Shown here: piece after piece, positions 1-55,300 of the stretch | Position numbering within the stretch: the first letter of the stretch is position 1 | Layout: every line of letters starts with the position of its first letter | NCBI GenBank assembly: GCA_008632985.1 | Contig: QPGO01000049.1 | Span: 186,001 to 250,000 of the forward strand | DNA from: Psammoneis japonica | Taxonomy: Eukaryota | DNA length: 64,000 nucleotides | Direction: 5' to 3' | Notes under the pieces: model-generated | The model's input: only the letters and a program-made list of their open reading frames with translations | Told to the model about the DNA's origin: nothing | Databases searched by the model: none | Translations under genes and position numbers: made by a program

Positions 1-539
1 AATTGTTTGCCAACACAACCTGGCTCAACCTTGCCATTTTGCCTCTCTTTTCTTGCAAATCTCTCAATGTGAAGACATGGAAGAGTGCACCCCTCTGCTG
101 CACTGGCACAGCACCATGTGCTGCTGCCTGGCATTAGCAGCAGTTTCTCCAAGGCCCATGCCAGCTGCATGACAACCTCAACAATGCCATGCCAGTGCTC
201 CAAGATCTGCTTCCAGCAATGAGATTGATGGTTTCACAAAAACAGAGACTGCTCCACCCAAGCAAGCATTGTCACACCCCATGTTGCACAACAAGCTGGC
301 TGCAAACTCTAAAAAGATGCCAAGCAGTGCTGCCATCTTTCTGCCACTGGTTGGGCAGTGTGCAAATGCCATCTCTTGTCAAATCAGGGTTGCAAAGCCA
401 GCTAAGAAGCCATGTGACTCTCTGGGGCACCTTTGTTGTTGGTCACATTTTTGGCAGAGGGGGGGGGGGGGGGGGGGGGCACCACAGGGCTCAGGGCAAG
501 CACAGAGCCAAAATGATTAAACACATGTGAGACCACAAG

Positions 540-1700
540 TCCAGACACTTTGTGAGCCACACCATGATGCAAAAAAATGAGCAGAAGTCCAAGCAATTTG
601 CAACAGACAAGCCATGGTCACCTCACATTAGGCCAAGTGCATTTGCTGGATTCAGCAAAATGGCTCTGGGTCTGCCACCAGTGGAGCCAGTGAAAAAGCT
701 GCTCACCAGAAAAAGGCAAGAGTGGCATGGATGAACCAAAAATGAAATTGTGCAGTGTTGAGCTTCTTTCAGAGCAAGGCAAGACCATCAAAAAGAGTCT
801 CATGAGTGTGGTGTGTGCATTGCACATCACATCAGAGAGCCTCTTCTTGGCAGCCTTGCTGCAACAAAAAGCCTTTTCAGTGTGAGCTGCATTTTGACAC
901 ACAGAAGCTTGCCACAAGGAGAGTGCACCCTGTTGGCTGAGCAAATGGAATGATGTCATCACAACACCAGTGCAATGCCAGACAATGTGTGAGAGGACCA
1001 TCAAGAAGATGTGGCCTGTCTCATCTCTGCTGGGAAAGAAGGAGACCAGCAGTTTGTCACATGAACATTCCCACCTGTCACAGCAAAAAGCCCTGATGCT
1101 GAGACTGGTGCAACAAAAACAAAGATGAATCTTGTTTTTCATTGTGAAATCTTCACAACAGGAGTGGCATGACATCTTTTGACAACAACGACATCTCAAC
1201 AGCAAGATTGGTGCACCCAAGGAAGACCCTGCCATGTGTGCCAGTGCACTTTGAAGAGCTCTGTTTGCAACAAAGAAGCAGAGGACAAGGAGTGGGAACC
1301 ACACAAAACCTTGTGATGCTTTGAGGCTTTCCTCTGAGCAAAGCACAAAAGTGGTGCACAGATGTGGAGGAGATTCTCAACTTCATCTTTTGAGTCCCAC
1401 ATGCGCAACACATTTGCAGAGGTGTTTCAAACATCATGTGCTGGCATGGCACACTTCTGCCCACTGACAATGTTCAGAACATCTTGAAGAATCTGGGAAG
1501 CAGCATGGCATTTTGTTGGCCAGGCGGCAGCTGTGGTCAGGAAGCAGGAGGCAGAGAGCACAACTGCTGAGGAACAGCTTGCAACAACTGCCATGAGACC
1601 TGAGTGCAGAAGATGTTGAGAAAGTGCATGATGGCTGCTGAAAAAGAAAAAAAATGATCAGCAGCAAAAGTTTGCCAAGCTCTCAAAGAGATTTGTTGAG
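540..1700 (+). mobile_element. Possible degenerate non-LTR retrotransposon fragment (host of the nested Copia insertion)
   Basis: The 'EQKSKQFATDKPWSP' motif resembles, from memory, the region between endonuclease and RT in diatom LINE-like elements. Heavily frameshifted. Confidence 0.25.
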
Positions 1701-1784
1701 CTCTTAAAAAGACAAAAAAGGAAGAAACAACAGAAAAGGCAACATGGGAAAAAGAGCAACAAGCTGGATGCCACATCAACCAAC

Positions 1785-2128
1785 TGTTGGAGCAAGTTAG
1801 ATGAGGGTGTTAGAGAACCCGGAAATAGTTGAAGTCCATGGATGTTTTGGCTCCTGACGTGGCCGGTCTGATGACCATGCATTCTTTGTCATCGCACTGT
1901 CATCCCTGAAATGAAGTGTTCTCACTCTTTAGAGTGAATCATCTGGTGTGTCAACTGTTGTCATCGGTGATGGGAAGCATCTGTTAAAAAAACCAAATCC
2001 ATTTGGTGTGCAAAGTTGTGTTGAATGATCTTCCAGGCAAACCACACAAGCAGCCAGGATGTGTGCATCAAGAGTGGAGGAAGCTTCACAAGATTCCCTT
2101 TTGCCGCCATTAACATGTTGGTCCAACA
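1785..2128 (+). repeat. 5' LTR
   Basis: TGTTGGAGCAAG...GGTCCAACA; aligns to 9067-9410. Confidence 0.95.
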
Positions 2129-2143
2129 TTCACTCTAAAGAGT
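2128..2143 (+). promoter_or_regulatory. Primer-binding site complementary to the LTR (putative self-priming PBS)
   Basis: ATTCACTCTAAAGAGT is the exact reverse complement of LTR 1924-1939 (ACTCTTTAGAGTGAAT). No tRNA-type TGG PBS is present. Confidence 0.65.
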
Positions 2144-2214
2144 CACAAGCATGCAAGTGAGACAGCTTGCCATGCCAAGTCTACATTCTCTTGAAGAAAC
2201 AAGCAGCCTGCAAG

Positions 2215-5200
2215 ATGAGCAGCAGAGGAACTGGCAATCTGCACAAGAAGGGCCAAGACGGAAAGTGTGGCCAAGGCAATGGGAATGAGAACCCCAAGTC
2301 TTCCGGATCAAAGAAGAAGATGCACAGCAACAGGAGCTTTAACCCTGAAATGAAATTCCATCCATCAATGATGAACAGTGACTCTTGAAACACAACGTTG
2401 GAAGACATGAAGACCAAGATTGTGCATTGCATCCAGAAAGAGTGCAAACAAGGAAAGCACTTGGCATGATCACTAGAAGACATGAAGCACCAAGACTTTT
2501 TGGGTGAGGAACCAACCTCAAAGGTGTCCAACAAAGCAAAGGACTCACCAGAAGCAGAGCAAGAGAACAGACAGTTTGAATGCAAGCACAAGGCTGAACT
2601 CAGAGATCATTGCCACAAGACAAAACAGTTCGAGGAGAACAAGAACAAGGCATTTGCAATGATTCTTGATGACTGCTGCGTGAGACCAATGAGGCAGAGA
2701 GTGCAAGCAGATCTCACCTGCAGTGCAATCAGGGACAATCCCATTGAGCTGCTAAAGCTGATCCAAACCCTGACACACGACTCCATGATGGGTCGACACC
2801 CATTCCACACACTTGCGAAAGCACTCAAAAACCTGTTGGATTTAAACCAACAAGAACAAGAGCCGATCAACAACCACCTGTCACATTTTAAGAATCAACG
2901 TGATGCAACAAGCAAAGGATTGGGCGAAAACTGCTTGACAGTTTCATTGAAAACTCAAAGGAGCATGCCACAGCAGGAACATCAGAGAAAAAGGAAATGA
3001 AGCAGTCTGCATGTGAGACATGGGCTGCATTCCCATTCATTCCAAACAGCAATGATTGCCATTGCAAGATCCTCAAGAAGGGTCTGGTTAGAGACTGCAG
3101 CATGGGAAAGGACATGCATCCCAAGATGCTGGAGTCAGCCATGAATGCACCACTCAACCATTCAAAGGACAATGATCCGCGCAAGAGAAGCGCAAAGAAC
3201 TGCAATCACAGATGCAATGACAACAATGACAAGGACAAGAACAAGAACAAGAAGGACCAAAGTCACTTGCAAAAACAAAGCAAGTCAATTGCATGCCACT
3301 GCTGTGGGGTGGTGGACAATCATGAGTCCAACGAGTGCAAACTGAGAAACAAGATGCCATTTGATCAATGGTGGAAGAAAACTGGAAAGAAACCACAGCT
3401 GCCAGGGCAAAGTCATGCCCAATCAAGAACTGGAAAGAGCAGTTCAAGCAAAGACGACACAAGTGTCAAGTCCGTGCTCAGCATGACATCTGCTTGGTCG
3501 TGCAAGGGCCGAGCAAAAGCTTGGCATGGACTGCAACTTGGGAATGATGACCAAGGAATGAGCTTAAATCAGAACAACACAAACATTGAGCCAGAAGAGA
3601 TTGTCCTTGACAATGGTTCTGCCCTTGGCATGGCAGCAAGCCAGAGGTCAGTGCACAACGTGCGACTGGCAAGGATCAAGATTGATCTGTCCACCAACGC
3701 AGGAGTGGACACACTGGACAAAGACTGCACCATGCCAGGATGGGGTGATGTAAAACTGGGATCCAAGAATGTGATTGCCAACATCCTCAGTTTACGGGAT
3801 GCAAAACAGAAGTGTTGTGTTGCATGCGACAACAGAGCAGCAGATGAGTTCCGACTGCCAGACAGGAAAACAAACAAACAAGCCGTTAAGGCCAATGACT
3901 CAGGGCTGCACACATTTCAACCAAGCAAGGAGTCCTTTGAGAACGTCCAATGGCTGCAAGAAGAGGAGCGACATGCAAGTCTGAATGTGACAACCACGAG
4001 GAAGTTGAGGCAGAAGATGCCAAAACCCGGCAGTGCATCAGGGGCCATGATCCCCTCTGCTAAAGAAAATGCCAAGGGCCACACAAAACGCAAGATGTTG
4101 CAAGTGAAAGAGGCACTGCGATTCTGTCATGAAGCCGGCATCCCAAGCACACAGGATTGCAGACGTTCCTCATGTTCCAATCAGGTGAAGAACTTGACCA
4201 TCGCACCAGATGATGCTGATCAAATGGTGGCCACTTGGGGTCCACCAGAGGATGCGATTAAAGGAAAGACCAAGCGTGCTCATCATTCCCATGAGAGGAA
4301 CGTCGTGATTGCTTTGCCATCTGAATTTCATGAAAGGCAGAGCAATGGAATGACTCTGTGCATCAACATTGTGGAGGTTTGTGGAGTCAAGCTCCTGCAC
4401 TCCATCAACAAGACTGTTGAGCACAGAGCAAATGTGAAACTGAAGTCCAAGAAGCACGTGGACATTTGCAATGCACTGGACATGATGCCACGACAATGTG
4501 ACAAGGCACTCTTCAAGACAGATTTCATGGAATGCAATCCTGAGTTCAAGGAAATGTTGTCCGAGGTTGCAGACGGTGTGAGCATTGAACTCATTGCTGT
4601 CAATCCGAAAGACCATGTTCCCAAGGTGGAGCGCAGTGTCCAAACCATCAAGGAACAAACTTGCACCACGGTGCACCATGCACCGCACAAGGCAATGCCA
4701 AAGCTCATGTGTGAGCATGCGGCAATCAAGAATGCTGTGATGATGAACATGTGCCCACAAAAGGATGGCATTTTGGATGTCTGCAGTCCTCACACCATTG
4801 TGCAACAACAAAATCTTGACCATGCCAAACATTTTGAATTTACATTTGGAGAGTTTGTGCTCTCACACATTGAGAACCAACCCACCAATGCCATGGAGAT
4901 GTGTGGCGTTGACAGCATCCACCTGTGCCCATGGTTTGATGCTGACAAAGGGGGGCACTGCACCATGAATTTGCACACGGGCAAGCTTTTAAATCCCTGC
5001 AAGTGCACTGCAGTTCCACTGACCAGCACCCACATTCGGGTGGTCGAAAAGATGGCCTCTCGTCAAGGCATTGAAGAATTCAAGTTCACTGGTTGATGTG
5101 GTGACAATCTTTGTGACACCAATTGGACTGCAGGAGAGGAAGACAGCAACAGCGACAGTGACAGTGACAGCGACAATGACAGCAACAGCGACAGCAACAG

Positions 5201-7290
5201 CAACAACAACAGCAACAGCAACAGCAAAGATGACTCAGACAATGAACAAGAACAAGCTGATGAAACTTTAGCAGGAAATGAACACAGTCCCAATCAACAT
5301 CAAGAAGATGAAGAGAAAGAAGAATCCAATGAAATGGGAGACATGAAGAACAACCAGAACCCACTGAGATCAGAGGTTGAACAACAAGATTGGGACAAAG
5401 CCACATCACTGCATCAAAGGACAGCATGCCTGACAAAACAACACACAAGAAGAAAATTCTCTTTCCAGGAGTGGCAGCCACAGAACAAGAGGAACGCAAG
5501 CAAAGGAAACTCAAATGCTGCCATCATCTAAGAGCAAATGTCAATCCCAATCCTGAGGATGACATGGAATGCCACTGCAAGGTCAGACTTGTCACAGCAT
5601 TCTTTATGTGCAAGCACAATGACAGAGCAAGAGTGGGATGAGAGATCTCACTTGGACAACAGCACCTGTTGCACAAAGGCCTAAAGTCATTTGGCCAGAG
5701 AGGAAATGATGCCTCAGAAAAGGAAACAAAACAACTGCATGATCAAGTGTGTTTCCAACCAGTGTCAGTGAAAGACATGACTCCGCAAGAGAGAGCCAAG
5801 GCAATGGCAGCCTTGATGTTCCTGATGGAGAAGCGTGATGGATGCACAAAAGGGCGAATGGCATGCAACGGCAAACCATCATGAGAAATGCTAGACAAGG
5901 ACAAGTCAGCCAGCCCAACAGCATCACCAGAAGGAATTGTGATGACACCGCAGTGACAGATGTGGATGAAGGATGTGACATTGTGAGCACGGACATTCCA
6001 AATGCATTTGTGCAGACAGAAATTCTGGAGCCACAGAAAGGCAAAGACTGGATTGGGATGAAGATCACAGGTTTGCCAGTGGACATGCCAGCAAATGTTG
6101 ATCCCAACCTCTGTGGACTGCATGTGGTCCTAGAGAGAGGAAGGAGAGTCCTCTGCGCACAAGTGGCAAGAGCCATCTGCATCATGGTGGTCGCGGCTCC
6201 ACCATGGCACAAGAAGTTCCAAAAGGACTTGGAGAGGGTTGGGTTTGAGTTCAACCCATGTGACCCATGCATTGCCAACCACAATGGAAAGCAGCACACA
6301 GTGCAACCCCACATGGATGATTTGTCATCAAGTCACAGGAATCCCAAAGCAAATGACAAGTTTCTCAAGTGGTCAAACAGAGAGTGCGGGAGCCATGGCA
6401 AGGTCGTGGCAACAAGAGGAAAGAAACATGACTGCCTTGGCATGATCCTGAATTTTACCGACAAAGGAAAGCCAAGGGTGGACATGAGAAAGCAAACAGG
6501 ATCAATGGTTGACAGTTTCCTGGAAAAGATCAAGAGCACAGATTTCACAATGACACCTGCAGGGGAGAACCTGTTTGAGACAGGCGGCACAAGACTGACC
6601 AAAGAGAAAGCACAAACATTCCATGTGTGGGTTGCCAAAGGATCATTTGCATCCAAGAGAGGCCGCATGGACATGCACCCCACAATGTTGGCGCCATGTG
6701 CGCAAACAAGGGAACCCACAGATGAGGACTGTACAAAGTTAGTCCAATGTCTCAAGCATTTGAATCAAACAAGGAACGAAGTGGCAACACTGAGTGCCAA
6801 GGATCTCCGAGTGACAAAGTGGCACGTGGATGCATCATTTGCGGTGCATCCAGGTTTCAAGAGCCACACCGGAGCAGCAACAACAATGGGCAATGGGGCA
6901 ATGCAAGCCATGTCAAGAAGACAGAAGCTCAACACACGAAGCAGCACAGAAGCTGAACTGGTTGGAGTCAATGATGCAGTGACTGTGATCCCATGGACAT
7001 TTGTGGAACACCAAGGACATCCTGTCAACAAGAATGTGCCACACCAGGACAACAAGAGCGTGATCTTGTTGGAGACTGATGGTCATCAAAGTGCCGGCAA
7101 ATGGTCAAGGGGGGCACTCAACACAAGACATTTCTTTGTGTGCAACCAAGTCAAGAAGGGCAATCTGACCATTGAATGCTGTCCTGCAGATGCAATGATT
7201 TTGGGGATTTTATGACCAAGCCATTGCAAGGCGAGAAGTTTTGCAAATTTAAACAAGCCACAATGGGGTGCTGGAGATCCAACAGCAACA
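2215..7290 (+). pseudogene. Copia gag-pol polyprotein, frameshifted and with stops
   Basis: Zn-knuckle-like CHCCG..H..C, protease VLDNGS, integrase HVPKVERSVQTIKE, RT DIPNAFVQ/NPCDPC/HMDD, RNase H KWHVDASFAVH, SSTEAELVGV, QDNKS, DFMTKPLQG. Confidence 0.92.
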
Positions 7291-7679
7291 GGAGTGGGCT
7301 CCTGTTTTGTGATGTCAGACGAGAACTTTGACGTGCATGGGTGAAAGATCCCTGCAATCCAGAGAATGATGAACGTGCAATCTTCTCCCGGAGCAACACA
7401 GAGCAAGCAACACCAAGCACACAATTGAACACTGTCCCACAGATGCAATGATTTGGGATTTTATGACCAAGCCATTGCAAGGTGAGAAGTTTCACAAATT
7501 TAAACGAGCTGCAATGGGGTGCCAGAGACCCAACAGCAACAGGAGTGGGCTCCTGTTTTGTGACATCAGATGAGAACTCTGATGCACATGGGTGAAAGAT
7601 CCCTGTGACCCGGAGAATGACAAATGTGCAATCTTCTCCCAGAGCAACACAGTGTGAGCAACACCAAGCACACAATTGA
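7171..7679 (+). repeat. Tandem duplication (~253-bp unit) of the pol 3' end
   Basis: ATTGAATGCTGTCCTGCAGATG at 7171 and ATTGAACACTGTCCCACAGATG at 7424. The copies align over the whole unit. Confidence 0.92.
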
Positions 7680-7685
7680 GCAACC

Positions 7686-9054
7686 ATGGACGGCGATGAA
7701 GCTGGAGGTTTTGATGGAAATGTGGCAGCGGCCGAGGCTCACGCATTTGATGAACGCATGTGCTGTGAGCATGTTGCCTTCAACAAACACAACAAGGTGG
7801 CAGCAGCTGGCCCAAGAACTGTTTGCTTGAGATCATGAAGATGTTCAAGATGCCTGTCCGACACAAGGATTTGTTTGTTTGGAGAGGAGAGCTGGTTGTG
7901 AGCAAAAAACCCACAGATTGGCAGAATGGAACAAGACTGCAGCGTTTGAGCAGCATGCCAAGCAAGTGCAAAGAAGAGTGCAGAACCTGCAAGGTTTTTG
8001 GCACAGAAGGTTACATCCTGCCTTTGACCCAAACAGGAGAGGAGAACTTAACAGAGGAAGACTGCCATCACTGAGTCCTGATCTAGCAAGAGATGCACTG
8101 GATTGCACACAGCTTGCGGTGGACCTGGATTGCAGGCACAGGCTCAACTCTGATCACATGAGAGCGGTGTGGCAAGAGAGATGCTGTGCAAGGCTCGAAG
8201 CAATGGTGACCATGTTCAAAATGCACCAGACATGGACACCGCTGATGTGGGAACATGTGTCCACTGCAACCCCAATGATCTCTGTCCATGACAAAATGGA
8301 GACCATCACAGACAAGATGAGGTGGCCAAACATTGTGGCGCACACCCGTGAATCCCATTGGAAATTCCTGGCAAAGAGGTCAGAAACTCACAACAAGACA
8401 AGGCCGTCCTTTGCTCAGGGGCAACAGAACCCTGCAAAATTGGCCTTTGACAGGCTGGACATTGACCACATGGCAAAGGTGCCGTGGCTACAAGGTGTGC
8501 CGATGTGTGGCATGGATCGACTTGGGCAATGTGGCGGACTGATGTGTCCAGGCCACAACCACACTGCCGAGCATCCAGATTTTAGTGAGCTTGTCAGAGA
8601 CAAGAACGGAGTCATGTTTGATGCATTGAAACTGTCAATGTTCTTCAGAAGGACAATCGAATTTGTGTCCAATGTGCAGAAGCATCCCTGGGTTGTGCAC
8701 ATGGTGGATTTTCTCACATTGACTCCAAACACCATGCACCAGTGGATCTGAGATCAAATCAAACATTCAAATGACCGGAATGACACGCTGAGTGATGCAC
8801 AGCAAGAATTGATCAGACAAGATTTTACAATGACATTCGTCAACCATGTGAAAGGTGTTGCCAATGAATTTGATGACATGCGGTGCTGCTCAAGCAACAA
8901 ACAAGACACGTGGCATTTTGCCGAAGGGGTGAACATTGAGAGAGAACCTCATGATGTTCTCTACAATGTGTGTGCAAGGTGGAACATTTTCCCTCGAGGA
9001 GATGTTCCAACCTGTGTTGCAGCCCAAGAAGCATTGGACAAACAATCAGAGTGA
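7686..9054 (+). pseudogene. Extra sense ORF of unknown function between pol and the 3' LTR
   Basis: ORFs 7879-8751 and 8809-9054 are in the same frame, separated by a single TGA. An ATG lies at 7686 in another frame. Confidence 0.6.
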
Positions 9055-9066
9055 GTGGCAGGAGTG

Positions 9067-9410
9067 TGTCGGAGCAAGTTAGACGAGGGCATCAGAGAAC
9101 CTGGAAACAGTTGAAGTCTGTGGACATTTGGCTCCTGATGTGGCCTGTCTGATGATGATGTGTTCTTTGTCATTGCACTGTCATCCCCAAAATGAAGTGT
9201 TCTCACTCTTTAGAGTGAATCATCTGGTGTGTCAACCATTGTCATCGGCACTGGGTGGCATCTGTTGGGGCCAAATGCATTTGGTGCACGAAGCTGTTGA
9301 ACAATCTTCGAGGCAAACCACAGCCACACAAGCAGCCAGGACGTGCACATTGAGAGCAGAGGAAGCTTTGTGAGATTCCCTTTTGCCGACATTAACACGT
9401 TGGTTCAACA
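9067..9410 (+). repeat. 3' LTR
   Basis: TGTCGGAGCAAG...GGTTCAACA followed by TSD CCAAC. Confidence 0.95.
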
Positions 9411-10964
9411 CCAACAAGCTTGTCTTTGAAAAGCAAGGGTGAGCCAGATGCTTTGTGAGTTTGCTCTGGATGCAGTCAGGCTGAATCACCAAGTTTTACA
9501 GAGTCAAAAAAGTGAGCTCATTTAACAATTTCTTGCTGCATGCTGACTTTGGCAATGAGGACCTCAAGCAGATGGGTCCCATCATTGAGCCAGGCAAATC
9601 ATTCTGCTGCTGCTGTCCCATCACAGAGCAGAGCTCCATGGACTCATTGGTGATGTGTCCCTTGACAACATTGCTGCCATCTCAAAGGAAAGCTCTCAAA
9701 ACAAAAACCCAAACAATGAGTCTTTGCATGTGTTCATTGAAAAAAACACTGAAGACAGCAGGGTCATCAATTGCAAAAAAGAGTGGGAAGAGCATGGGCT
9801 GGGCACACAGAAAGATTTCTGTCCCCCCCCCCCCCAAAAAAAAAAGCTGCTCCAAGTCAACCAAACTCAAAATCTTGTCTTGCTCATGTGCTGACAAACA
9901 AAGCAAGCAGAGCTGTTTTCACATCTTGTTCAATGCACCACTTGGCTCTTCATTGAGCAAATTCCCCCACCTGAAACTCCACCATGCAGCCAGCCAGTTT
10001 GAACAAAAAGGATGCACCCACTTGACACAGAATTCAAAAAAAATCATTGCATTCCAGAGACAACAAAGAGGTGCAAAGGCATTGTGACAAATCAACTGGA
10101 GTGCAAAAAATGACGAACATGTTTTCCAGCCCCATGATGATGGCAGCATGGTGGAAATGCCCATCAAGGACATGCAAGAATGGACAAAAAGTCAAAAGAA
10201 GGATCCTGAAGAGTTGTCATGTGAAGCTGCAGCCACCAATTGGTTGGCACCTTCACAAAAGGAGTGGGGGTGGTGGGTGACAACTTTCCTCAAACAGGTG
10301 TTGATGCTCAAGCCACTGCTGTCATCCCAACACCTGACCAGTCACACATTGGGTCTGTCCAACTTCACCTGTTGAACATGTCAAACCCCAAAAAGGCAGA
10401 ACCGCATGTCCTCCACTCCAAGTGCTTGCCTCCCTCATGTCAAAATCCAACTTTTTGAGAAATGGGTTGAAGGTGTCAAGGCTGGCTGGGCTGGTCTGCA
10501 AAGTGAGTTGCATCCTGAAGGTGAGGAATTAGGTGATCCCAAAGTTGTCCCCAAAGGACTCGTCACCGTTTCAATTCTGATGACATCGAGTGGCACCGAC
10601 CTTGTAGGCTCCTCTAATTTTGAATCTTCTCTACTTAGTGAAATGATTGGCTTTGGTTCCTTTGCTGTTAGAAATGCACTTTGAACACCAAAAATCACAT
10701 TGGCTGATTCATCAAACAATACAAGTACATCATGTTTATTATCCCTCTAATTCTCTCATGCCATACCCAGATCTCATCGATGTCGACAAGATGTGCACAG
10801 ATTCCTTTGTTCCCACATCATCTCCGTCACAAACATCGGTTGTAGCCCTACTCGTACAAATCAAAGTCTCGCCAGCACTGATAATCGTGATAAAATAATT
10901 GCAACATCACCACTACTAGTAACTCTTTGGTGGTCTTGGGGTTCTCACTGCCGATCGCTCTAGA

Positions 10965-12296
10965 CTATCTCCGCCTCGACAGCCATGATCGAGGCCTTGA
11001 TGATATTCTTTTCCAGAGCCCGGGTCTCTTTGTTGACTCTAGATCATCAAATAAACGCCTTTTATCCGGAGTCGAAAACAATGGACTGCGATAAGTATCT
11101 TGAGCACGCAGATTACTCTCCATGCGTTTCACCTCTAGTTGGTGGAGTGAACGTTCCTCCTCCAGTATTCTCTCAAAATTATCTTTTTCAATCTTTTGCA
11201 TGGACGCAAACTTTACCTGTTCCTGCTGCAGCTGCTCCTGGGCTCGGGTCGCTTTCAGCCGCAATTCTTCGTTTTCTTCTTGAGACTCACGCAATCGTTC
11301 CGCAAGTGCAACTTCATCAGCTTGCTCTTCCTTTTTCTCTTTTGCGAGAAGGCAAAGCGACTTGTAGTCATCTCTCAGTTCGTCAAGCTCGCCTTGCAGC
11401 TTCCTGTTTTCCACCAACGCGTCATCATACTTTCGCTCAACCAGCAAAAGCTTCTGACGAACATCCTTCTCGCGTTTTTCCGCCGCTTTTACCGCGCCCT
11501 TTGCAATTTCAATAGATTCCAATTGGTCCTCGTCAACAAAGGATTCTGTCACGTTTTGATATTTCGCAAGCAGTCCTTCCTTTTCTTCGACAGCCTCGGC
11601 GAGCTGCTTTTCGAGCTTCTTTCGTGCCTTTTGTTCTAGGTTGATGGCCTTTTGTGCCTCGTCTTGTTTCGAGTCGAGTGTCTTTTGCAATTTCTCGAGT
11701 TCATCCTGTGCTTGTTCAAGCTTCTCGTCCAAATGAAGCATTTCATTCTTTAGGGCACCCCGCTTTTCTTTTTCCTCCAGCAATTGCTCTTGTTGTCGAC
11801 TTTGCTTCTTTTCATAGTCCAACTGATTATCTTTGATTTGTTGCTTCAATGCTTCAATCGAACTCTTGTCAATTTTTGCTTGCTCTTTGAGTTCGGACTT
11901 GATTTGATCCAATTCCGTTTCAATCTCCTTGATTTGTTGACTCGCTTTTTCTTGTGTCTGCTTTTCCTTGCTGGCTAGTCGTTTCACCACGTCCTGAAGA
12001 ATCGTGGTTTTCGAGTCGGCCAATTGAAACTTTTCGGAAACTTCCTTGAGTTCGGCGACCTTTTCTTTCAAGGTTGCTTGAAGCAGTGCGGCACGATTTT
12101 GGTACCGACGCATCTCATAGTCTTCCTCGGTAGTCACAATAACAACATCTTCTTTTTCTTGTGGTGTAACGGACAAACGTGTCGAGAAAAAATCAATCGG
12201 AGAATTCAACGATTTCGCAATCAGTTGAGGAGAGAAGGCTGATACAAAACGATTGAGAATCAGCGAAACAAGGAATATCAAATATTTTCGACGCAT
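10965..12296 (-). CDS. Predicted plastid-targeted coiled-coil protein
   Basis: 443-aa ORF. Signal peptide followed by VSAFSP (ASAFAP-like bipartite motif). Long E/K/Q-rich helical body. Confidence 0.85.
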   Translation of the reverse strand: MRRKYLIFLVSLILNRFVSAFSPQLIAKSLNSPIDFFSTRLSVTPQEKEDVVIVTTEEDYEMRRYQNRAALLQATLKEKVAELKEVSEKFQLADSKTTILQDVVKRLASKEKQTQEKASQQIKEIETELDQIKSELKEQAKIDKSSIEALKQQIKDNQLDYEKKQSRQQEQLLEEKEKRGALKNEMLHLDEKLEQAQDELEKLQKTLDSKQDEAQKAINLEQKARKKLEKQLAEAVEEKEGLLAKYQNVTESFVDEDQLESIEIAKGAVKAAEKREKDVRQKLLLVERKYDDALVENRKLQGELDELRDDYKSLCLLAKEKKEEQADEVALAERLRESQEENEELRLKATRAQEQLQQEQVKFASMQKIEKDNFERILEEERSLHQLEVKRMESNLRAQDTYRSPLFSTPDKRRLFDDLESTKRPGLWKRISSRPRSWLSRRR

Positions 12297-12876
12297 GCTG
12301 AGGTCAGTCTTCTTTGTTTCCCTTGCTGTGGCTTCTTGTCTTCTTGTTCAGCGCCAAGATGCACGTGTATGGTTTCATGACACAACACACTTTTCGCTTG
12401 TGAAGATGTTGTGATGTGGGATGTGGGATGCGGGATGCGATGCGAGATGCGATGATCCATGATGCCCATCAGGAGAGAGATGAGCGCGCGCAACGCACGC
12501 TACAGTACCTATGAGTATTATGCAACGCACGCCTCTGGGGGGTGCGACGCACGGATTTGAGTAAGATACTACGAGCCAGCCAGCTATTGTTCAAAAAGCA
12601 TTTATGATACATATTTATTTCTTTATCAATGCATTAATAAAAATAATTACCTGTCTCACGATTCAAATTATTTCCTTATTCCTCATAGCTATAGCTCTAT
12701 ATTATTCGTTGGATCTTGTTTGAAGATCGCAGAAGCGCTCTTCGCCAAGAACGCCCAACCGACCAGCGATCCTCTCACCTCTCACAAAATCGCCAAACAG
12801 GGTCCAACAAAACCAAACACACGAGTGTGAAAGGAAATCAGCATTGACAACAAGGAGTATTACTCTCAATCATCTC

Positions 12877-14344: not shown

Positions 14345-15317
14345 ATGTCTAATGAGGGAAAGAATGAAAATACTGAGGAAAGCGTCAAGGTGGTGTTGAA
14401 ACAAACCTTGCTGAAAGTAGACGAGGTCTTTGTTTACCGTATACCTCCCATGAAGACTGCCGGTGGACATCGGTAAGTGCCCGACGACTTCTTCGCTCAC
14501 CCAGTAGAAAATAGAATCAGCCACATTTTCACTGATTTGCATTCCTTCTCATTCTTGACCGTTGCTTCTCGCGTTACTGTAATATAGTGCCGAAGACTGG
14601 GATCTCGCCAAGCCGTTCGCCACGTGTTCTCTCGACGTGGAACGACGCGACGATGCCTGTATCATTTCCTTTTTTATTGCCAAACCCAAAGAGGGCGGAC
14701 CGGAGGGTGCCACGGAGCCATCGCTATTTGCACAGTGCCAAATTGTCTTGCTGGAAAACAAAAAGCCCATCAAGCACTGGGTCGAAGCCGTGGTGGATTC
14801 GTCTCGGTACTTTGCCGTGCGCATTTCGGATGGCAAGCAGCGAGAGGCACATGTCGGCATGGGATTTCGTGAACGAGATGATGCGTCCAATTTTAAAATG
14901 AGCTTGCTGGAGTATGAAAATTCTATAATGCGAGAACGAAAGGGAGAAGAAATGCACCTGGCGTATGAACAAAAGGAAGAAGAAGAGGAAGTTGAAGCAG
15001 CGGCAGCGGGACTGCCGGCGGTCAGCAAGCTAACTCTAAAGGAAGGAGAAAAGATTCACATTAATCTAAAGGGAACGCCGTCAAGGCCAAAAAAGGACAA
15101 ACCAAAGCAGCAGCAATGCAAAGGCGCCGCTACTCTTTTACGCAAACCGCCTCCACCGCCAGCTGCACAAGGCGAAGAAGCCGTTTCAGAAATCGAGGTT
15201 GTGAAATCCGCAGAGCCTGATGCTGTAGAGGAGGACACTTCGGAATGCGCGGTCGCTGATGCTCAAGATGTGGATGATGATGATGAATGGGGTGACTTTG
15301 AAGGCCCATCCACCTGA
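14345..15317 (+). CDS. NECAP: Adaptin ear-binding coat-associated protein (NECAP, PHear domain); intron 14473-14587
   Basis: VFVYRIPP...GHR|AEDW across a GT-AG intron, VEAVVDSSRYFAVRI, GMGFRERDDA, C-terminal WGDF motif. Confidence 0.92.
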
Positions 15318-15559
15318 TGACCCTGTAACCTGTAGTGTTTGGCAGCGTCTAACAAACGCGTGGTTCAGCAAACTGGAACCCGAGACCGGTGGAGGTCTGC
15401 CCAAAAGGATCGAAACATCTCAAAGAAAGATAGTAGTTTGAACCATCAGTTTTTCTCTTGCATAGTAGTCGCAGTTCTTACTATCGACTTGAGCTGAGCA
15501 CAAACACCCATTTCTTAAAGTTGTCAGCACAATCACTGACTTTTTGGTGCTGTTGCTAT

Positions 15560-40236: not shown

Positions 40237-42461
40237 TCACACATCTTCTTCGACGGCTCCCTTGTCCTTCAGCATTTCCAAAAGTGTCCCTTCAGTCAAT
40301 CCATCAATCATTCCTTCGGAGACATCTAAAATCCAGTCCATAATATCCAGCGGATCACTAAGCCGCCCTACACCGTCCCCTAGACGATTCACCACGTCAT
40401 ATCGAATCGGTTTACTATCCCCAATAGGGTAGAAATAGACATCAGGGACCATCTGAATATCCAAATAGTTTTGACCACGAATCTCATTCTGTGTCACGTC
40501 CATCTTTGTCAATTCAATGAACGAGTTCCATTTTAGGTATCGCATTAGACGAGAAAGCTCATTCCATAAAATGGAGAAACGTTTGCAATGACCACAGGTT
40601 GGAGCGTAAAAGAACACAAGAACGTGTTTATCACGCGGACCGTCAAGGACAAGCTTTTCAAACGTTTCTCCCGTCAAAACTTTGACTCCGCTTTCGTTTT
40701 CGGTCAATCCAGCGCTTTGAGATTGCAAGACAGGAGCTAGTTGGTTGTCCCAAAAAGCCTTCAAAAAGCGTTCAATGGACGATGGCGTATTATGGTTCTC
40801 CCCGAAAATGGAGTCCGTGTCAAGGTAGTATCTTCCTGTCCCACCAAAGCGTCGATCAGTGATGAGGAGGGTTGGCAGCAGGGCAGGTGGCGCTTCTTCC
40901 ATTTCCTCTGTTTCCTTTGCCTCTGTCACTCTCACATCCAGCGGTGTCCAAATGTCAACTCCAAACGTATTCATAATTCGTGTCTCTGTACTCGGAACCA
41001 CAATGCATACCATATCGCTTGACTCCGCTCTGTGGGTATGGCATGCACGACGGAAATTAGCAACTGCGCGACGGACGGCGAGAAGCTCCGTATTGGCTGC
41101 CATTTCTTCAGTCGCTCCATCCCATTCAATGACAATGTGCATGTCAACAAACAACACCGCATGGACCCGGCGAGACACCGCAAAGGCCATTGGTGCTACC
41201 GTCTTTCGGTCAAACCAAAGAACAATTGGAGTGGCTTGACGAACAACAAACTGCGACATTGCATTGACATCATCAGACGGCAGGAGATGTGCAGCATCTT
41301 TACTCAGATCAGACAAGCTATGACTTGTCCATTCCGTCTTGTCATCCGCCATGAGTGCAATCACCTCACCGTCTCGCGTCATGTCCAAATGGTCGCACTC
41401 TTGTACTGCAAAAAAGGCAGTGTCTCGACGTTGTGCCATGGTTAGCGCCAACTTGTCGTATTCATAATACAAGTCAAGCTCTTGGTCTGTTGTGTTTTTT
41501 CTGCATTGAATAAACAAATGAAATGGTTCGTCCTGAATATTGAGCAACCAGTCCATGTACCACTTTTCATTTGGGCGCAAACCCGGCGACACGGCCGGTA
41601 AAAGCTGATTCAACAAGCCACCAGCGTGCGCCTGCATAAAGGACAGTAGGTCCACAGATGAAGTCATTTCAAACACTGGATAATCTGATTGGTAATACTC
41701 TTCCTTATTCTTCTTGTCGTGACCACTGACGTAATACAGAGGACTCAATGAGTATCGATACCAATTGTGAAGAACAGTCTCTACAATGTTGCTTGGCAAT
41801 GTCTGCAACCCTTCATACTTCAACACGTCAACTCCGACTTCGCCGGTTTCATAAAAGTATCCCCGCACAAAGAGCAACACGGGCACCTCGTCCGTGTTGA
41901 GTTGGTCCAACACCCAATCCTTCTTTTCGGAAACATCCATTTTGGCAAAGAGCGGCGGTACGACTTGATCCATTATCGGAGCGGAAATAAGAGCAGCGGC
42001 CTGCTCGACCTTTTCAATCAAAACCTTGCTGTGTGGACAAGAATGTGAGTACACAACAGCAAGCATAAGAATTGGCTGGGCGGTAGCCGGCATTGCCTCA
42101 AAGGCATCCAACAAGCTGTTGGCTGTAGAGAAACAAATTAAATGCGTTCAGTTTGCACAAGAAAACTCAGTGCGACTCGTTTCAATACAATGATTGACTT
42201 ACCATTTTTCAGCACCAACAGCCCGTTTTCTTTTTTTATGTCCTCCGGAGGATCGACAAGTGAAGAAGTGCTTGTGCCCTCGTTATGTCTGAGTTTCGAA
42301 CTGTCGTCGGCCTCTCTGGCGTTATTTTCCGGTGTCACCGAATCGTTTGCCACCGCCGTAACGCTTATCAGACAGGCCAATAGGCCTAGAAAGATACATA
42401 TGGTGGAACGAGGTATGCCATTGCAGCTTCTCCTACCAAGAGAAGTGATAAGCAGCGCCAT
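40237..42461 (-). CDS. Protein disulfide isomerase-like/thioredoxin-domain protein; intron 42123-42202
   Basis: N-terminal hydrophobic signal, degenerate first Trx site (SCPHS), C-terminal FYAPTCGHCKRF. The splice restores the frame. Confidence 0.9.
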
Positions 42462-42559
42462 GTCTCTCTCGTTTTGCGTTGCTGATTGTGAGTTTTGTGC
42501 TGAGGGCTACGTACAGTGCAGCGCGCATCGCGCGCGTTACTGTATTGTAGTTGCTTGCC

Positions 42560-52018: not shown

Positions 52019-52329
52019 GGTTGCTTGCTTCTTGGTTGTTGGTTTGTGGAACTTGTGAGGTATGAGGTGGTACAGGTCTTGGGTCTTCGCAGAATTCTGG
52101 GATTATGGGGTCTGGGGGTACCGGGTGGTAGGTCTGGGGTCGCATCCACTTTACAGTACTTTGGCTGCATTTACTTAGAGCCCCCCCACGAAATTCAACC
52201 TTTACTTATGCACCTGTGACCCCNNNNNNNNCCCCGCCAGTTACAAAAAATCCGTAGAAGTGACAGGTCGTCGCGCGCCACATTTCCCCCCCTTTTTCTG
52301 GCACGCTGTGAACGACCCGCATCGTTGTT

Positions 52330-55300
52330 GCAGGTGCGCATTTCACACTTCATCCACAGCTTTACTTTTCAACAAGGGTTTGTCAAGAGCCCCTTTGTGT
52401 TCAAATTGCCATGCCCATGCTTGAAACAGTGGGGCCAAAAAGCCAGTCAAGTCCTTTGGAACTAAAGAAGTTGAGGCAAAGTGCGCCGAGGCCGGCACCT
52501 CACCCTTTGAAGAAGAGCGAGCACGCCAGCTGACAGAAATATGGAAGAGCTGGATTTTGGTGGTCAACCTTCATGATGAACAAGGAAATGGTGAACAGCA
52601 GCAGCGACCCATTGGCAATGCAAATGTGCCAACAGATCACTCCATCTTTTGGCTGGGCGGCCAAAATTTGCTGGGGTGATGGTGCACTCTGGCGTGAACG
52701 CCAAAGTGGGCTGGGGCTCGAGTCAAGGGGCCAACCAAGTGTCTCAGCTGTCTGGGTGTCTGTGCATCTAGGCATGCCATCACAGGCATGAGACCAGGCA
52801 CTTCCACCTGACCAGACCAAAGAAAAACTGTTCTCCTGTCCCTGGAGCACATGCCCTTGTTGTTTGCAGGGCACACCTGTGCAACGGTCTCTGCAAGGAG
52901 ACTTGTCTGCTGCAGCATGTGAACAGTGGCAAGGTGTTGCACTGAATCTGGGCTGGAGCTCTGCTTGCCATGTTTGCTTGACATCATTCAAGCTCAAGTG
53001 TTCAGTCAGAACAAGAGCTGCTCGTTCTTGTCCAAATCCTGCCAGATTGACAGTCTTGACGACCCTCGTCAAACCACGAGCTGTCATCAAGCAACAACAA
53101 CTTCACAAGGACACAAGTGCATGAGTGATGACTGGAGTGGTTTCTGGGGTCCACTTGACAGCAAAGTCAGAAGCCACTCAGAGAAAGATGCACAGGTGAT
53201 GCACACAGTGTCAAGTTGTTGACATGGGGAGCAACGACCGAAATCAAAAAAGAGCTGGGTTTTGGCAAGCAACCTTCATGACAAATGAAAAAAACACCAA
53301 TTGGCAGCAGCAACAAATTGGCAGTGCAAATGCCAATGGATCACTCCATTCCTTGGTTGGGAAACAGAGAAATCCACTGGCATCAGCGGCACATTCTTGT
53401 GCGAGTGCCAAAGTGGGCTTGGGTTTGAGTCACACCAACCAAGTGTCTTGGCCTTCTGAGCATCTGTGCATCTGGGCATGCCATTGCATGGGAATGAAAC
53501 CAGGCACTTCCACCTGGCCAGACCAAAAACTGTTCCTCTGACCCTGGAACACATGCCCCCGTTGTCCACAGTGGCACCTGCGATGGTCTCTTCATGGAGA
53601 CTTGTCTGCTGTGTGTGGACAGCAGTGAGGTGATGTGCCAGGTCTGGGACAGAAGAACAAGAGTGGCTCACTCTTGTTGTTCAAATCCTGTCAACAGCCC
53701 ATGAAAGAGAGGGCAGCAAAGCAAGGTGATGCAGAAAGCAAAAGGAAGTTGATGAAGCCAATGAGCTCAAATGGAGGTGCAACCAGCACAAGCAAAGCAA
53801 GAAGATTTGTGAAAAAGCCACAACTTGAGGTGGCTGGCTTCAGAGCAAAAGCAAGCAAACAGTGGTGTGCCAAAGGCCCAGGCTGCAGGAGGAGTCAGAG
53901 GGCAATGCCATGTCACAAGAACCCAAATGCTTTAAACTGCAAGCTGCCAGAGAAAAGTGCAACTCATGATCTGAAAGATGCAGAGAGCAAGATTCAGCAA
54001 GCACTGCCACAAGATTGCAAAAACAATTTGAGTCATTGGTTGAAACTGCAGCATGCACAAGAATGGCCCACCATGCACCCAGGAATGTTCTGTTTTCAGC
54101 TTCAATGTGAGCCATTCAAAAATGTCACATCAGTCACAGCCAACAAAGGACAACAGGTCAACAGATGAAGTCATTTTCAAATGCTGGACAACCTGATTGG
54201 CAACACTCTTCCTTGTCCTTCTTGTCATGGCCACTGACACAATGCAGAGGACTCAGTGAGCAATGATGCAAGTTGTGAAGAACAGCCCTGCCATGCTGCT
54301 TGGCAATGTCTGCAACCCTTCATGCTTGAACACATCAACTCTGACTTGGTTGGTTTCACAAAAGCATCCTTGCACAAAGAGCAACATGGGCACCTCATCT
54401 GTGTCGAGTTGCTCCAGCACACCCAGTTGCTCCTTTTTTTGCACACATCCATTCCAGCAAAAAAGAGTGTCAGTGCAGAGTTTGATCCATTGTTGGAGCA
54501 GAAATGGGAGCAGTGGCCTGCCTTGCTTTTTCAATCAAAGCCTTGCTGTGTCAACAGAGTGTGAGTGCACAACAACAGCTGGCACATCAGCATGAGAACT
54601 GGCTGAGTGGCAACTGATGTCCTCACCTCAAAGGCACGCAAAAAGCTTTTGGCTGCAGAGAAAAAAGTTTGACATTTTCCATGCCCTTGCAGTTTTGGGC
54701 AATGTCGCTGCATTTAATCAAAACTTTAAATTGTGAAGAACAGTGAAATGAATGACAAAACTCTTCTGTTTGGATGAGCGCAAAAATGTGTGTGAGCTGT
54801 TTTGACTGTTACAGTTTTGTCTCATGACATTGCAAGCCCTCAAACAGATTTTTTACCTGCAGTTTGAAAAATTGCAAAGAGATCTGTGCCTCACAGAAAT
54901 GTTGATGACACATCTGAACTGAACAGGGCAACAAGGTGAAACAAGTGATGGACAGATGCGCACACATGGTGGGGATGCATGCATGCAGATGCACCATGGA
55001 AGAGCAACTTTTGGCAACAATTTCTGGTTCTTCAGCTCTGTTCAAAGTTTTGCATCATGCATTGGTTTTGTTGTCAGGGCTGATCACATTGCCCCATGAG
55101 CATCTAAACCAAAAGTCTGTGGGTCAAAATGTGTCAAGCTGAGTCATTCTTCTGAGTTGCTTGCAAAGAGGAACATGAACATTTTGCACTCAAATGACAT
55201 GGCAGTTGAACAGAGAAAATGCGAGGACAACAAATTTTGTCACATGGGTGAGGAACAAGTTAAAAGGTGTTCACTTCGAGCAAGAAAATTGAGCACCGCT

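Follow-up and report, generated by a model that had tools for sequence, protein, structure and literature searches.

At the 3' end of pol in a degenerate Ty1/copia element, at 7168-7682 of the window (the whole 64,000-nucleotide stretch of DNA analysed here), lies a 251/253-bp tandem duplication whose two copies carry TG in one and CA in the other at the same positions, raising the question of which dinucleotides were ancestral and what process altered them. According to the original prediction, such pairs are complementary outcomes of an ancestral TpA, each struck on either strand after the duplication. Our analysis makes it likely that the tandem copies diverged within an island in which CpG and TpA were both turned into TG or CA by single transitions, the duplicate showing locally a process that extends over entire islands.

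On the grounds of its sequence, the element is a dead Ty1/copia LTR retrotransposon of the diatom CoDi-like type, with the following parts.

1780..1784, no strand: target-site duplication CCAAC, left copy, identical to 9411-9415
1785..2128, + strand: 5' LTR with TG...CA termini, paired by self-BLAST with 9067-9410 at 81.4% identity over 350 columns
2904..5096, + strand: gag, protease and integrase stop-free frame of 730 aa without Tyr, from the ORF list, with tblastn coverage of 2985-5135
5642..5946, + strand: N-terminal part of the reverse transcriptase (RT), in a frame different from that of the next ORF, with tblastn segments at 5648-5947
5839..7215, + strand: RT and RNase H frame of 458 aa without Tyr
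9067..9410, + strand: 3' LTR, pair of the 5' LTR

The LTRs open with TGTTGG and close with CCAACA or TTCAACA and, since CCAAC is identical on both sides, both derive from a single insertion event. When seven full-length homologues were used as tblastn queries, their N-terminal two thirds were placed at 2985-5135 and their RT/RNase H at 5648-7200, giving the domain order integrase followed by RT/RNase H. The RT/RNase H frame has 8,957 phmmer homologues (best 50% identity, E 1.8e-120), with a Grammatophora 'Reverse transcriptase Ty1/copia-type domain-containing protein' and a Cylindrotheca protein among the named relatives, and the named relatives of the host genes are diatoms. A dinoflagellate origin was set aside, a dinoflagellate spliced-leader motif having had no match with as many as 3 mismatches allowed; a protein atlas search with the CLC frame yielded no informative taxon. 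Pfam yielded no family at E 0.01 with any of the four frames of the element, nor at E 10 with the two long ones; the copia RT model was likely missed because Tyr, Arg and other residues have been lost.

The duplicated stretch within this element is laid out as follows.

7168..7420, + strand: tandem copy 1, 253 bp, with a 2-bp insertion near 7199-7203
7421..7671, + strand: tandem copy 2, 251 bp, with the canonical pol tail IEHCPTDAMIWDFMTKPLQGEKF... up to TGA at 7571-7573
7672..7682, + strand: third copy of an 11-12-bp microhomology (ACNATTGA...), placed by alignment ends and sequence

Tandem Repeats Finder reported a single array at 7171-7679 (period 251, 2.0 copies, 87% matches, score 787), and in an ungapped self-comparison an offset of 251 was the sole peak, with 205/258 matches against at most 93/256 for each of the remaining offsets from 245 to 257. 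Gapped local alignment of the two copies paired 7168-7431 with 7421-7682 through a single 2-bp gap. The array is a duplication, within one dead insertion, of the last ~45 pol codons and ~115 bp downstream, flanked by the microhomology, with which copy 1 (7168) and copy 2 (7421) open as well. The RT/RNase H frame stops at a TGA within copy 1, after the 2-bp insertion, and the pol tail of copy 2 is out of frame relative to the pol ORF; two bases are absent at 7199, relative to copy 1, in one contig from another copy of the family.

Across the 262 aligned columns the copies differ at 33, and 31 of these mismatches are transitions. Pyrimidine-purine dinucleotides contain 27 of the 33 mismatched columns, as 10 TG/CA doublets together with 4 pairs of CG/TG and 3 of CG/CA, leaving 6 remaining mismatches; background divergence is 4/130 positions (~3%), against the 27 mismatched positions in pyrimidine-purine dinucleotides. 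Placing 31 transitions and 2 transversions at random onto copy 1 in 20,000 simulations gave a mean of 0.78 TG/CA doublets with a maximum of 6, never the 10 observed. One of the copies still has CG at 7 sites, and neither TA/TG nor TA/CA pairs occur between the copies in the 262 aligned columns. Taken by itself, the tandem pair resembles CpG decay.

For polarity at the duplicated stretch we relied on homologue proteins 35-50% identical to the element, rather than on a DNA outgroup of the same family. Three places within the copies are informative.

7174..7188, + strand: 15-mer GAATGCTGTCCTGCA of copy 1, with TG at 7177-7178 and T-G at 7185-7186
7427..7441, + strand: 15-mer GAACACTGTCCCACA of copy 2, with CA at 7430-7431 and C-A at 7438-7439
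7242..7244, + strand: TGC of copy 1, against CAC at 7493-7495 of copy 2, a CpG-derived doublet in an Arg column (R 27, K 4, L 3, Y 3, N 2 of 46)

Both 15-mers had been singled out by the original prediction and are present as described, as are gccacaatg (7257-7265) and gctgcaatg (7508-7516). Among 46 homologues, the column of codon TGC 7177-7179 / CAC 7430-7432 holds Y 24, H 19, F 2, C 1 and R 0, and that of GCA / ACA (7186/7439) holds T 45, M 1 and A 0. The absence of R and A from these columns indicates that CG, the ancestor that would have spoken against TpA, was not ancestral at these two sites, and opposite TG and CA outcomes from TpA are thereby supported. A regular expression for the same motif found it in 84 of the best 150 representatives (Y 52, H 25, C 4, F 2, R 1), and the locally closest homologue reads GNLTIEYCPT where the window reads GNLTIECCPA. 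The proposal that gctataatg was ancestral to gccacaatg and gctgcaatg is compatible with the column behind gcc-aca and gct-gca (7260/7511; I 25, V 11, L 8 of 46), and so is GTA (Val), with a CG spanning the codon boundary. Reading TG/CA doublets as TpA outcomes stands at the two 15-mers and cannot be extended to every doublet, the doublets being a mixture in which at least one of the ten, that at 7242/7493, with its Arg column, derives from CpG. By arithmetic, ~13-16 ancestral CpG and ~13 TpA per 262 bp predict ~9 doublets, compared with the 10 observed; some two thirds of these are expected to trace back to TpA, the remaining third to CpG.

Loss of TpA is seen in the tyrosine codons, which number 0 in the 1,321 codons of the element (0/731 in the gag/protease/integrase frame), while seven host frames have 1.4-3.9%. 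Not one of the 16 conserved Tyr columns across the element still has Tyr, 7 now being Cys and 5 His. The 11 such columns of RT/RNase H have become 6 TGY, 4 CAY and 1 CAA (C6, H4, Q1), and the 5 of integrase, likewise with 0 kept, now read L, H, W, C and F. Conserved His and Gln columns were kept in 11/12 cases and flipped to a TG codon in 0/12. Among 15 conserved Arg columns, R is retained at 6 (5 AGR, 1 CGC), Q (CAA) is found at 3, C, H and W at one each, and others at 3; the decayed Arg CGN columns read CAA, TGT, CAT and TGG.

The element lies within the first of four hypermutated islands.

1..10200, no strand: hypermutated island 1, with CG o/e of 0-0.39 and TA o/e of 0.01-0.16 in 1-kb windows
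15300-22700, 42400-46300 and 52200-55000 (approximate), no strand: other islands, from composition

Over all four islands, 1-kb windows reach a CG o/e of up to 0.58 and a TA o/e of up to 0.21, against ~0.6-1.2 and 0.2-0.9 elsewhere; CG and TA depletion are correlated (Pearson r 0.90, 124 windows), and island edges are graded across 200-600 bp. Pooled, the islands (24,079 bp) have a TA o/e of 0.08, a CG o/e of 0.20, TG and CA equal at 1.81 and a GC content of 47.8%, compared with 0.56, 1.04, 1.18 and 49.2% in the rest of the window (37,404 bp). The element itself has a CG o/e of 0.30, and its flanks at 1-1784 and 9411-10200 are converted too. These values describe four islands within one 64-kb window, in which an 873-bp array of 12 copies, 98-99% identical, has normal composition and no conversion. 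A polarised example of the change is provided by a duplicated gene fragment.

41638..42139, - strand: copy A, unmutated paralogue, within a 636-aa stop-free frame carrying a thioredoxin domain
54145..54669, - strand: copy B, hypermutated paralogue, within island 4

Normal composition, an open frame of great length and parsimony are the grounds on which copy A was taken as the ancestral state; a homologue search at E 0.001 among proteins of similar length returned nothing for residues 1-200 of its thioredoxin frame. Every TA site of copy A (20/20) is changed in copy B, 10 to CA and 10 to TG, and its 20 CG sites have become TG (12), CA (6) or other (2). By comparison, TG was kept at 28/33 sites and CA at 36/44, with flips from TG to CA at 2/33 and from CA to TG at 1/44, over a background divergence of 31/251 positions (12%). 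The unmutated paralogue A, the converted paralogue B and the untouched 873-bp array together show targeting by domain rather than by repetition, and it is islands, rather than repeats in themselves, to which the process is limited.

The timing of the changes can be read from the LTRs, where 53 mismatched columns include 13 TG/CA doublets, 7 CG/TG pairs, 1 CG/CA pair and 2 TA/CA pairs. As the target duplication is intact and the two LTRs still differ by 13 doublets, 8 pairs in which CG is retained and 2 TA/CA pairs, the changes arose after integration. Acting on DNA already integrated, the process reaches both strands, coding and non-coding sequence, and a gene fragment that is not a transposon.

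Relatives of the element extend these observations. In eight other database copies the same Tyr columns hold C or H in a mosaic (C 32, H 24 pooled over seven copies), which indicates that the outcomes are independent, and proteins in three further databases (ENA, JGI/IMG, Logan) have lost Tyr likewise; the 80 loci examined encode none of eight Tyr-poor database proteins. One metagenome relative, L062, has a TA o/e of 0.04-0.29 across most of its contig with CG at 0.75-0.89, and keeps Tyr at 1/11 columns and Arg at 10/11 (7 of them CGN), so that TpA was lost without loss of CpG and one process can occur apart from the other. In loci like L079, L052 and L036, CG is at 0.18-0.27 and TA at 0.58-0.77. 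Measured against 72 intact relatives, a baseline made of elements from other organisms, TA retention is 0.53 in TTAA, 0.13 in CTAG, 0.026 in ATAT, 0.025 in GTAC and 0.013 in GTAT/ATAC. The TpA process thus prefers RTAY and spares TTAA, a pattern compatible with a sequence-reading enzyme without pointing to which. Within the family, which is multicopy, differences are mainly transitions (A>G 176, G>A 183, C>T 143, T>C 146), each transversion class numbering 14-30. Short contigs of one public run, possibly from the sample behind the window's own assembly, contain 88% of sampled 31-mers from 6000-9500, and 53 of 388 contigs aligned to 5800-9500 are at least 99% alike; among the best-supported 40 of 822 differences in the contig alignment, none falls at the sites in question within the two 15-mers. 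Two other runs, X2 and X3, contributed no aligned contig.

We propose that, since the duplication, both copies have lain inside an island where single transitions, striking either strand with near-equal chance, turn the two self-complementary pyrimidine-purine dinucleotides into TG or CA. CpG would become TpG or CpA, presumably by deamination of 5-methylcytosine, and TpA would become TpG or CpA by an A:T-to-G:C transition, opposite outcomes in the two copies leaving a TG/CA doublet. Most simply, the CpG half of the pattern is methylation-driven CpG decay. For the other half we infer that TpA in islands either has its bases modified symmetrically or is acted on by a deaminase; the mark might be conjectured to be an oxidised thymine, for example 5-hydroxymethyluracil (5hmU) or 5fU, pairing with G. 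As a tentative and broader reading, which we do not favour beyond the status of a real possibility, this lineage may mark silent DNA with a second symmetric mark (a modified T or A) on TpA, with RTAY preference, besides CpG methylation, or may possess a DNA-level editing enzyme; the footprint of TpA to TpG or CpA would mirror CpG decay, proceed tens of times faster than background, be separable from it (as in L062) and erase every tyrosine together with TAA and TAG stops.

Several other accounts of the doublets were weighed against this one. The least improbable, though still unlikely, concerns the two 15-mers only and accepts the TpA process elsewhere: copy 2 (CAC ... CCC ACA) would be ancestral and copy 1 hit twice per site. 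At the first site copy 2 could indeed be ancestral, as His occurs in 19/46 homologues (25/84 by motif search), and the third base of the Pro codon is not inferable from proteins. This account nevertheless demands four hits in 12 bases of copy 1 and zero in copy 2, whereas flips are rare even in the paralogue pair with its 12% background divergence (TG 2/33, CA 1/44), conserved His or Gln columns were flipped in 0/12 cases and the tandem background divergence is just 3%. Editing before integration, by an ADAR- or ADAT-like A-to-I activity on RNA or by a cDNA deaminase over several retrotransposition cycles, with the duplication already present in an active ancestor, is very unlikely. RNA-editing deaminases favour a 5' U, which would yield TA>TG, and the family is multicopy with copies differing mainly by transitions. 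Against such editing, the same doublets occur between two LTRs of one insertion with CCAAC intact, outcomes are strand-symmetric (C6/H4 in the query, C 32/H 24 in seven copies, 10/10 in the polarised pair), and the flanks (1-1784, 9411-10200) and the gene-fragment paralogue are converted as well.

It is more improbable again that CpG decay alone produced all the doublets, by deamination of methylated CpG on opposite strands with TA uninvolved, even though 7 sites keep CG in one copy and 0 keep TA, TGC/CAC at 7242/7493 corresponds to Arg in 27/46 homologues, the CG o/e of the element is 0.30 and CpG methylation of diatom transposons is documented (PMC2806351, PMC9998398). Ten doublets would by arithmetic require ~28 CpG per 262 bp (o/e ~1.7), and the two 15-mers show R 0/46 and A 0/46, conserved Tyr is kept at 0/16 columns, island TA o/e is 0.08, all 20/20 TA of the polarised pair are converted and relatives at CG o/e of 0.18-0.27 still have TA at 0.58-0.77. 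We give hardly any credence to the two remaining accounts. RNA virus genomes provide a precedent for joint suppression of CpG and UpA with an excess of UpG and CpA, and selection on the element RNA, rather than mutation pressure, might be imagined here; it fails to accommodate the removal of every tyrosine codon, invariant ones included, the effect on non-coding LTRs, flanks and a host-gene fragment, and changes that arose after integration, by which time the element RNA was free of selection. Some long-read base-callers make systematic mistakes resembling transitions at modified bases, and mis-calling in sequencing or polishing of the islands might be supposed; it is equally hard to credit in view of the data: short contigs of a public run have 88% of the 31-mers, 53 contigs match at 99% or more, tandem copies and LTRs differ inside one assembly, and the same Tyr loss recurs in ENA, JGI/IMG and Logan proteins. 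Neither assembly nor base-calling created the sequence as an artefact.

Two further sources of the TpA changes were also considered. Polymerase-eta has WA hotspots, and collateral error-prone repair of CpG deamination could be envisaged; it is unlikely given an AA/TT o/e of 1.20 and the loss of TpA with CpG intact in L062. GC-biased gene conversion was rejected, as GC is unchanged (47.8% vs 49.2%) and among A/T dinucleotides only TA is strongly affected, the AT o/e slipping merely from 1.00 in the rest of the window to 0.86 in islands.

The preferred reading, loss of both CpG and TpA to TG or CA, has consequences beyond the duplicate. Context-specific decay of silenced DNA has been a main source of knowledge on DNA modification: CpG decay exposed the footprints of cytosine methylation, and repeat-induced point mutation (RIP) exposed a genome defence. 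Silent DNA of this genome loses TA as well as CG, each to TG or CA, a pattern of which we found no description, and our literature searches did not find TpA loss reported in transposons or silent DNA. A TpA loss of equal strength, restricted to domains and made by A:T-to-G:C transitions, points to an unrecognised modification or editing activity, and the algal group concerned is ecologically dominant. On a practical level, hypermutated elements escape profile libraries (Pfam gave nothing at E up to 10 despite 8,957 phmmer homologues), with TAA and TAG gone, long false ORFs open up in all six frames (43 of at least 80 aa occur in 8 kb around the element), and ages from LTR-divergence dating would come out greatly overestimated.

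Among known systems, methylation-driven CpG decay is similar in affecting silent, transposon-rich DNA, in its strand symmetry, in its self-complementary pyrimidine-purine target and in leaving TG/CA doublets in duplicates, and diatom transposons carry CpG methylation (PMC2806351, PMC9998398). Its signature is present here, with a CG o/e of 0.20 in islands vs 1.04 outside and TG and CA equal at 1.81. CpG decay cannot, however, touch TpA, the loss of which is here at least as complete (0.08 vs 0.20), and the TpA change, from A:T to G:C, is chemically opposite. RIP of ascomycetes is likewise a dinucleotide-specific transition hypermutation that wrecks transposons at many times the background rate; a CpG-targeted RIP-like hypermutation is described in basidiomycetes (PMC3318451), and diatoms have DNMT4 enzymes of unknown function related to the RIP factor RID (PMC9998398). 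In contrast to the islands, where TpA is removed and Tyr codons change from A:T to G:C, RIP makes C-to-T changes only and raises TpA, and it mutates both copies of a duplication, whereas here paralogue A is intact and B converted.

The sole known transposon-associated mark that we found with a TpA preference is the 5hmU of dinoflagellates, which is made by TET/JBP homologues, is repeat-enriched and silencing, and replaces T preferentially in the dinucleotides TA and TC (PMC11572971). The accessible part of that account describes no mutational footprint of 5hmU, and literature searches found no report of 5hmU in diatoms. Unlike the case described here, 5hmU marking belongs to alveolates, and the parallel to the islands is an analogy rather than a demonstrated mechanism. 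Deaminases are also known to act on such sequences: APOBEC reportedly leaves G-to-A footprints in vertebrate LTR elements, and ADAR carries out A-to-G editing. Like deaminase editing of retroelements, the islands show clustered transitions in LTR retrotransposon copies; unlike such editing, which takes place on RNA or cDNA before integration and on one strand, the changes here arose after integration, on both strands, and reach beyond the element.

Tandem Repeats Finder returned a single tandem array at 7171-7679 (period 251, 2.0 copies, 87% matches), an offset of 251 was the sole peak in an ungapped self-comparison (205/258 matches), and gapped local alignment placed 7168-7431 against 7421-7682 with one 2-bp gap only. 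The strings quoted in the original prediction were found at 7174-7188 and 7427-7441 and at 7257-7265 and 7508-7516, confirming a duplicate with TG/CA differences. An 11-12-bp microhomology, ACNATTGA..., recurs at 7168, 7421 and 7672; flanking microhomology is the usual mark of duplication via slippage, template switching or unequal exchange. Between the copies, 33 of 262 aligned columns are mismatched, 31 of them by transitions. Pyrimidine-purine dinucleotides hold 27 of the mismatched positions, as 10 TG/CA doublets (TG in one copy opposite CA in the other), four CG/TG pairs and three CG/CA pairs, with six mismatches elsewhere; random placement of an equal number of changes gave a mean of 0.78 doublets and a maximum of 6 (20,000 trials). 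Background positions differ at 4/130, whereas almost every inferred CG or TA site is altered in at least one copy, so we estimate the dinucleotide rates at tens of times background.

These doublets had been read as opposite outcomes of an ancestral TA, and polarity taken from 46 aligned homologues, with proteins as the outgroup, supports this interpretation. CG ancestry is ruled out by the homologue columns at the TGC/CAC codon (7177/7430; Y 24, H 19, F 2, C 1, R 0) and the GCA/ACA codon (7186/7439; T 45, M 1). For the first of these, a motif search that succeeded for 84 of the top 150 representatives gave Y 52, H 25, C 4, F 2 and R 1, and the homologue with the highest local similarity has GNLTIEYCPT. 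At the third proposed site, gccacaatg/gctgcaatg (7260/7511), the claim stands in weaker form: CG is not favoured, the column after gcc/gct holding I 25, V 11 and L 8. Ancestral CA is possible for a single site, but across the named sites it would require four hits within 12 bases of copy 1 and zero in copy 2. CG was ancestral at another doublet, the TGC/CAC at 7242/7493, given arginine in 27 of 46 homologues. With ancestral CpG number estimated from the CG-retaining mismatch classes, 13-16 CpG per repeat unit would yield 3-4 doublets, with about 6 more expected from about 13 TpA, for a predicted total of about 9 against the 10 observed. The doublets are therefore a mixture of TpA and CpG origins, and what the duplicate preserves is the local trace of a process at work across whole islands.

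The array sits within one single Ty1/copia insertion, with the following features:

1785-2128 and 9067-9410, LTR pair with TG...CA ends
Either side of the LTR pair, perfect target-site duplication CCAAC
2904-5096, integrase-bearing frame, upstream of the RT/RNase H frame
5839-7215, RT/RNase H frame

Pfam gave no match in these two frames, even at E 10; phmmer gave 8,957 homologues (best 50% identity), and those with names are reverse transcriptases of copia type from two diatoms, Grammatophora and Cylindrotheca. For the window's host frames (NECAP, a thioredoxin-domain protein, ankyrin repeats, a CLC channel, a fucosyltransferase and Rad21), the named relatives belong to diatoms or Triparma, while the best match, at 63% identity, is an unnamed protein; the host is thus probably a diatom whose lineage has been sparsely sampled. 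The pol-to-LTR stretch of about 1.4 kb is unusually long for a copia element and holds a 306-aa stop-free frame (7831-8751, plus strand; no Pfam match), which may be an extra gene or a mere by-product of stop-codon loss. Because TAA and TAG are gone, long stop-free frames occur in all six frames of this DNA (43 ORFs of 80 aa or more across the 8 kb at 1500-9700), and such islands would mislead gene callers and profile-based repeat annotation.

Tyrosine codons are absent from the element (0/1,321), compared to 1.4-3.9% in seven host frames. When the RT/RNase H frame was aligned with 47 homologues, TGY occupied six, CAY four and CAA one of the 11 columns in which Tyr reaches at least 50%. Of the 15 conserved Arg columns, six hold R (five AGR, one CGC), three CAA, one each TGT, CAT and TGG, and three other residues. 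Conserved His and Gln are retained at 11/12 columns; Cys, Trp and Met are retained at 8/16, with at most two changes to His. The integrase frame retains Tyr at 0/5 columns (L, H, W, C, F) and has Cys, Gln or His at 8/17 Arg columns. From these readings, the element loses both TA and CG, with TG and CA as stable end points.

The window as a whole is bimodal in CG and TA observed/expected ratios (o/e; 1-kb windows), which correlate at r = 0.90 (124 windows). Four islands and two paralogous segments are relevant here:

About 1-10200, 15300-22700, 42400-46300 and 52200-55000, islands, CG o/e 0-0.58, TA o/e 0.01-0.21
Islands pooled (24,079 bp), TA o/e 0.08, CG o/e 0.20, TG = CA o/e 1.81, GC 47.8%
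Rest pooled (37,404 bp), TA o/e 0.56, CG o/e 1.04, TG = CA o/e 1.18, GC 49.2%
41638-42139, copy A, normal DNA, within an open frame of 636 aa that has a thioredoxin domain
54145-54669, copy B, inside an island

Most DNA outside the islands has CG o/e of about 0.9-1.2 and TA o/e of about 0.5-0.7, and island edges are gradual, over 200-600 bp. Both N runs (21433-21624, 192 bases; 52224-52231, 8 bases) lie within or border islands, which thus seem hard to assemble. Just beyond island 1 is a 460-aa stop-free frame of normal composition (10965-12347, minus strand; no Pfam match). Within island 4, 72%-identical repeats (52532-52939 and 53236-53635) carry 15 TG/CA doublets with CG and TA nearly absent, mirroring the tandem-pair pattern in an unrelated repeat. 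A giant stop-free frame (24231-38783, minus strand; pieces of 1151, 843, 442 and 2552 aa), with Big_9 and cadherin-like domains at its 5' end, has normal CG and TA content despite high repetition. Its array at 25705-36102, in which 12 copies of an 873-bp (291-aa) unit stand head to tail at 98-99% identity, is unaffected, so repetition by itself is not the trigger.

Copies A and B represent a 0.5-kb segment present twice in the window. The 20 TA of A are CA (10) or TG (10) in B, and its 20 CG are TG (12), CA (6) or other (2), with TG unchanged at 28/33 and CA at 36/44; B is left with two CG and no TA. Transitions number 20 over 39 positions at TA sites and 19, plus two transversions, over 40 positions at CG sites, against a background divergence of 31/251. 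By count from the alignment, 11 Tyr codons in A's frame became Cys or His codons in B. A probably represents the ancestral state, a polarity resting on composition, open frame and parsimony because the first 200 residues of its frame have no detectable homologues. Since A is untouched, targeting is by position, not by duplication. A second part of the segment (42128-42483 and 55250-55616), separated from the first by about 580 bp in B, sits at two island margins, half converted in each copy, with 6/18 CG common to both.

Retention in the islands relative to 72 intact relatives depended on context: for TA it was 0.53 in TTAA, 0.32 in TTAG/CTAA, 0.13 in CTAG, 0.026 in ATAT, 0.025 in GTAC and 0.013 in GTAT/ATAC. 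In a multiplicative model fitted per strand, TA survival was 0.10, 0.18, 0.41 and 0.72 with A, G, C and T, respectively, 5' of the T; the favoured target is therefore RTAY. For CG, GCGC was the best-protected context. TG and CA outcomes are close to symmetric between strands, at 10 versus 10 for TA in the polarised pair, C 6 and H 4 at the Tyr columns of the window, and C 32 and H 24 when six other Tyr-poor copies are included.

At least one test contradicts editing of RNA or cDNA prior to integration. The LTR pair of a single insertion is identical when integrated, and here its 53 mismatched columns include 13 TG/CA doublets, seven CG/TG, one CG/CA and two TA/CA, so the process works on integrated DNA. 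CpG decay alone likewise conflicts with at least one test: in a set of 80 copia-related loci from metagenomes (TA o/e 0.23-1.04, median near 0.62), those with CG o/e of 0.18-0.27 retain TA o/e of 0.58-0.77, and CpG decay thus does not reduce TA. Conversely, one environmental locus, L062 (whole contig, 2256 bases), has TA o/e of 0.04-0.29 over most of its length with CG at 0.75-0.89. It retains Tyr at 1/11 columns (C 4, H 5, W 1) and Arg at 10/11 (seven CGN) within an open 415-codon frame, and its surviving TA are likewise mainly CTAG and TTAA. The TpA and CpG processes are therefore separable, and L062 suggests another organism with the TpA process alone. A base-calling artefact and selection against UpA and CpG each conflict with at least one test as well. 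Tyr-poor sequences (0-1.3%, against a median of 3.3%) number eight among the 150 best database representatives; they are from the ENA, JGI/IMG and Logan collections and have a Cys/His mosaic at the same columns, and some may come from the window's own organism.

Together, these analyses show that TpA and CpG are converted to TpG or CpA after integration, symmetrically on the two strands, only within islands and in a context-dependent manner. The CpG half would be explained by 5mC deamination; diatom transposons are reported to be CpG-methylated (PMC2806351 and PMC9998398), and RID-related DNMT4 genes of unknown function are reported in 31 of 60 diatom species (PMC9998398). The TpA half would require T to turn into C, or A into G, within a palindromic dinucleotide. 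We favour, conjecturally, a symmetric TpA modification, such as an oxidised thymine pairing with G, with a putative DNA adenine deaminase as the alternative. No account of TpA loss from silent DNA emerged from our literature search, although subscription journals were mostly outside its scope and an earlier report is possible. The only precedent found for a TpA-preferring mark on transposons is dinoflagellate 5hmU, which is described as made by TET/JBP homologues and enriched on transposons, with TA and TC said to be preferred (PMC11572971).
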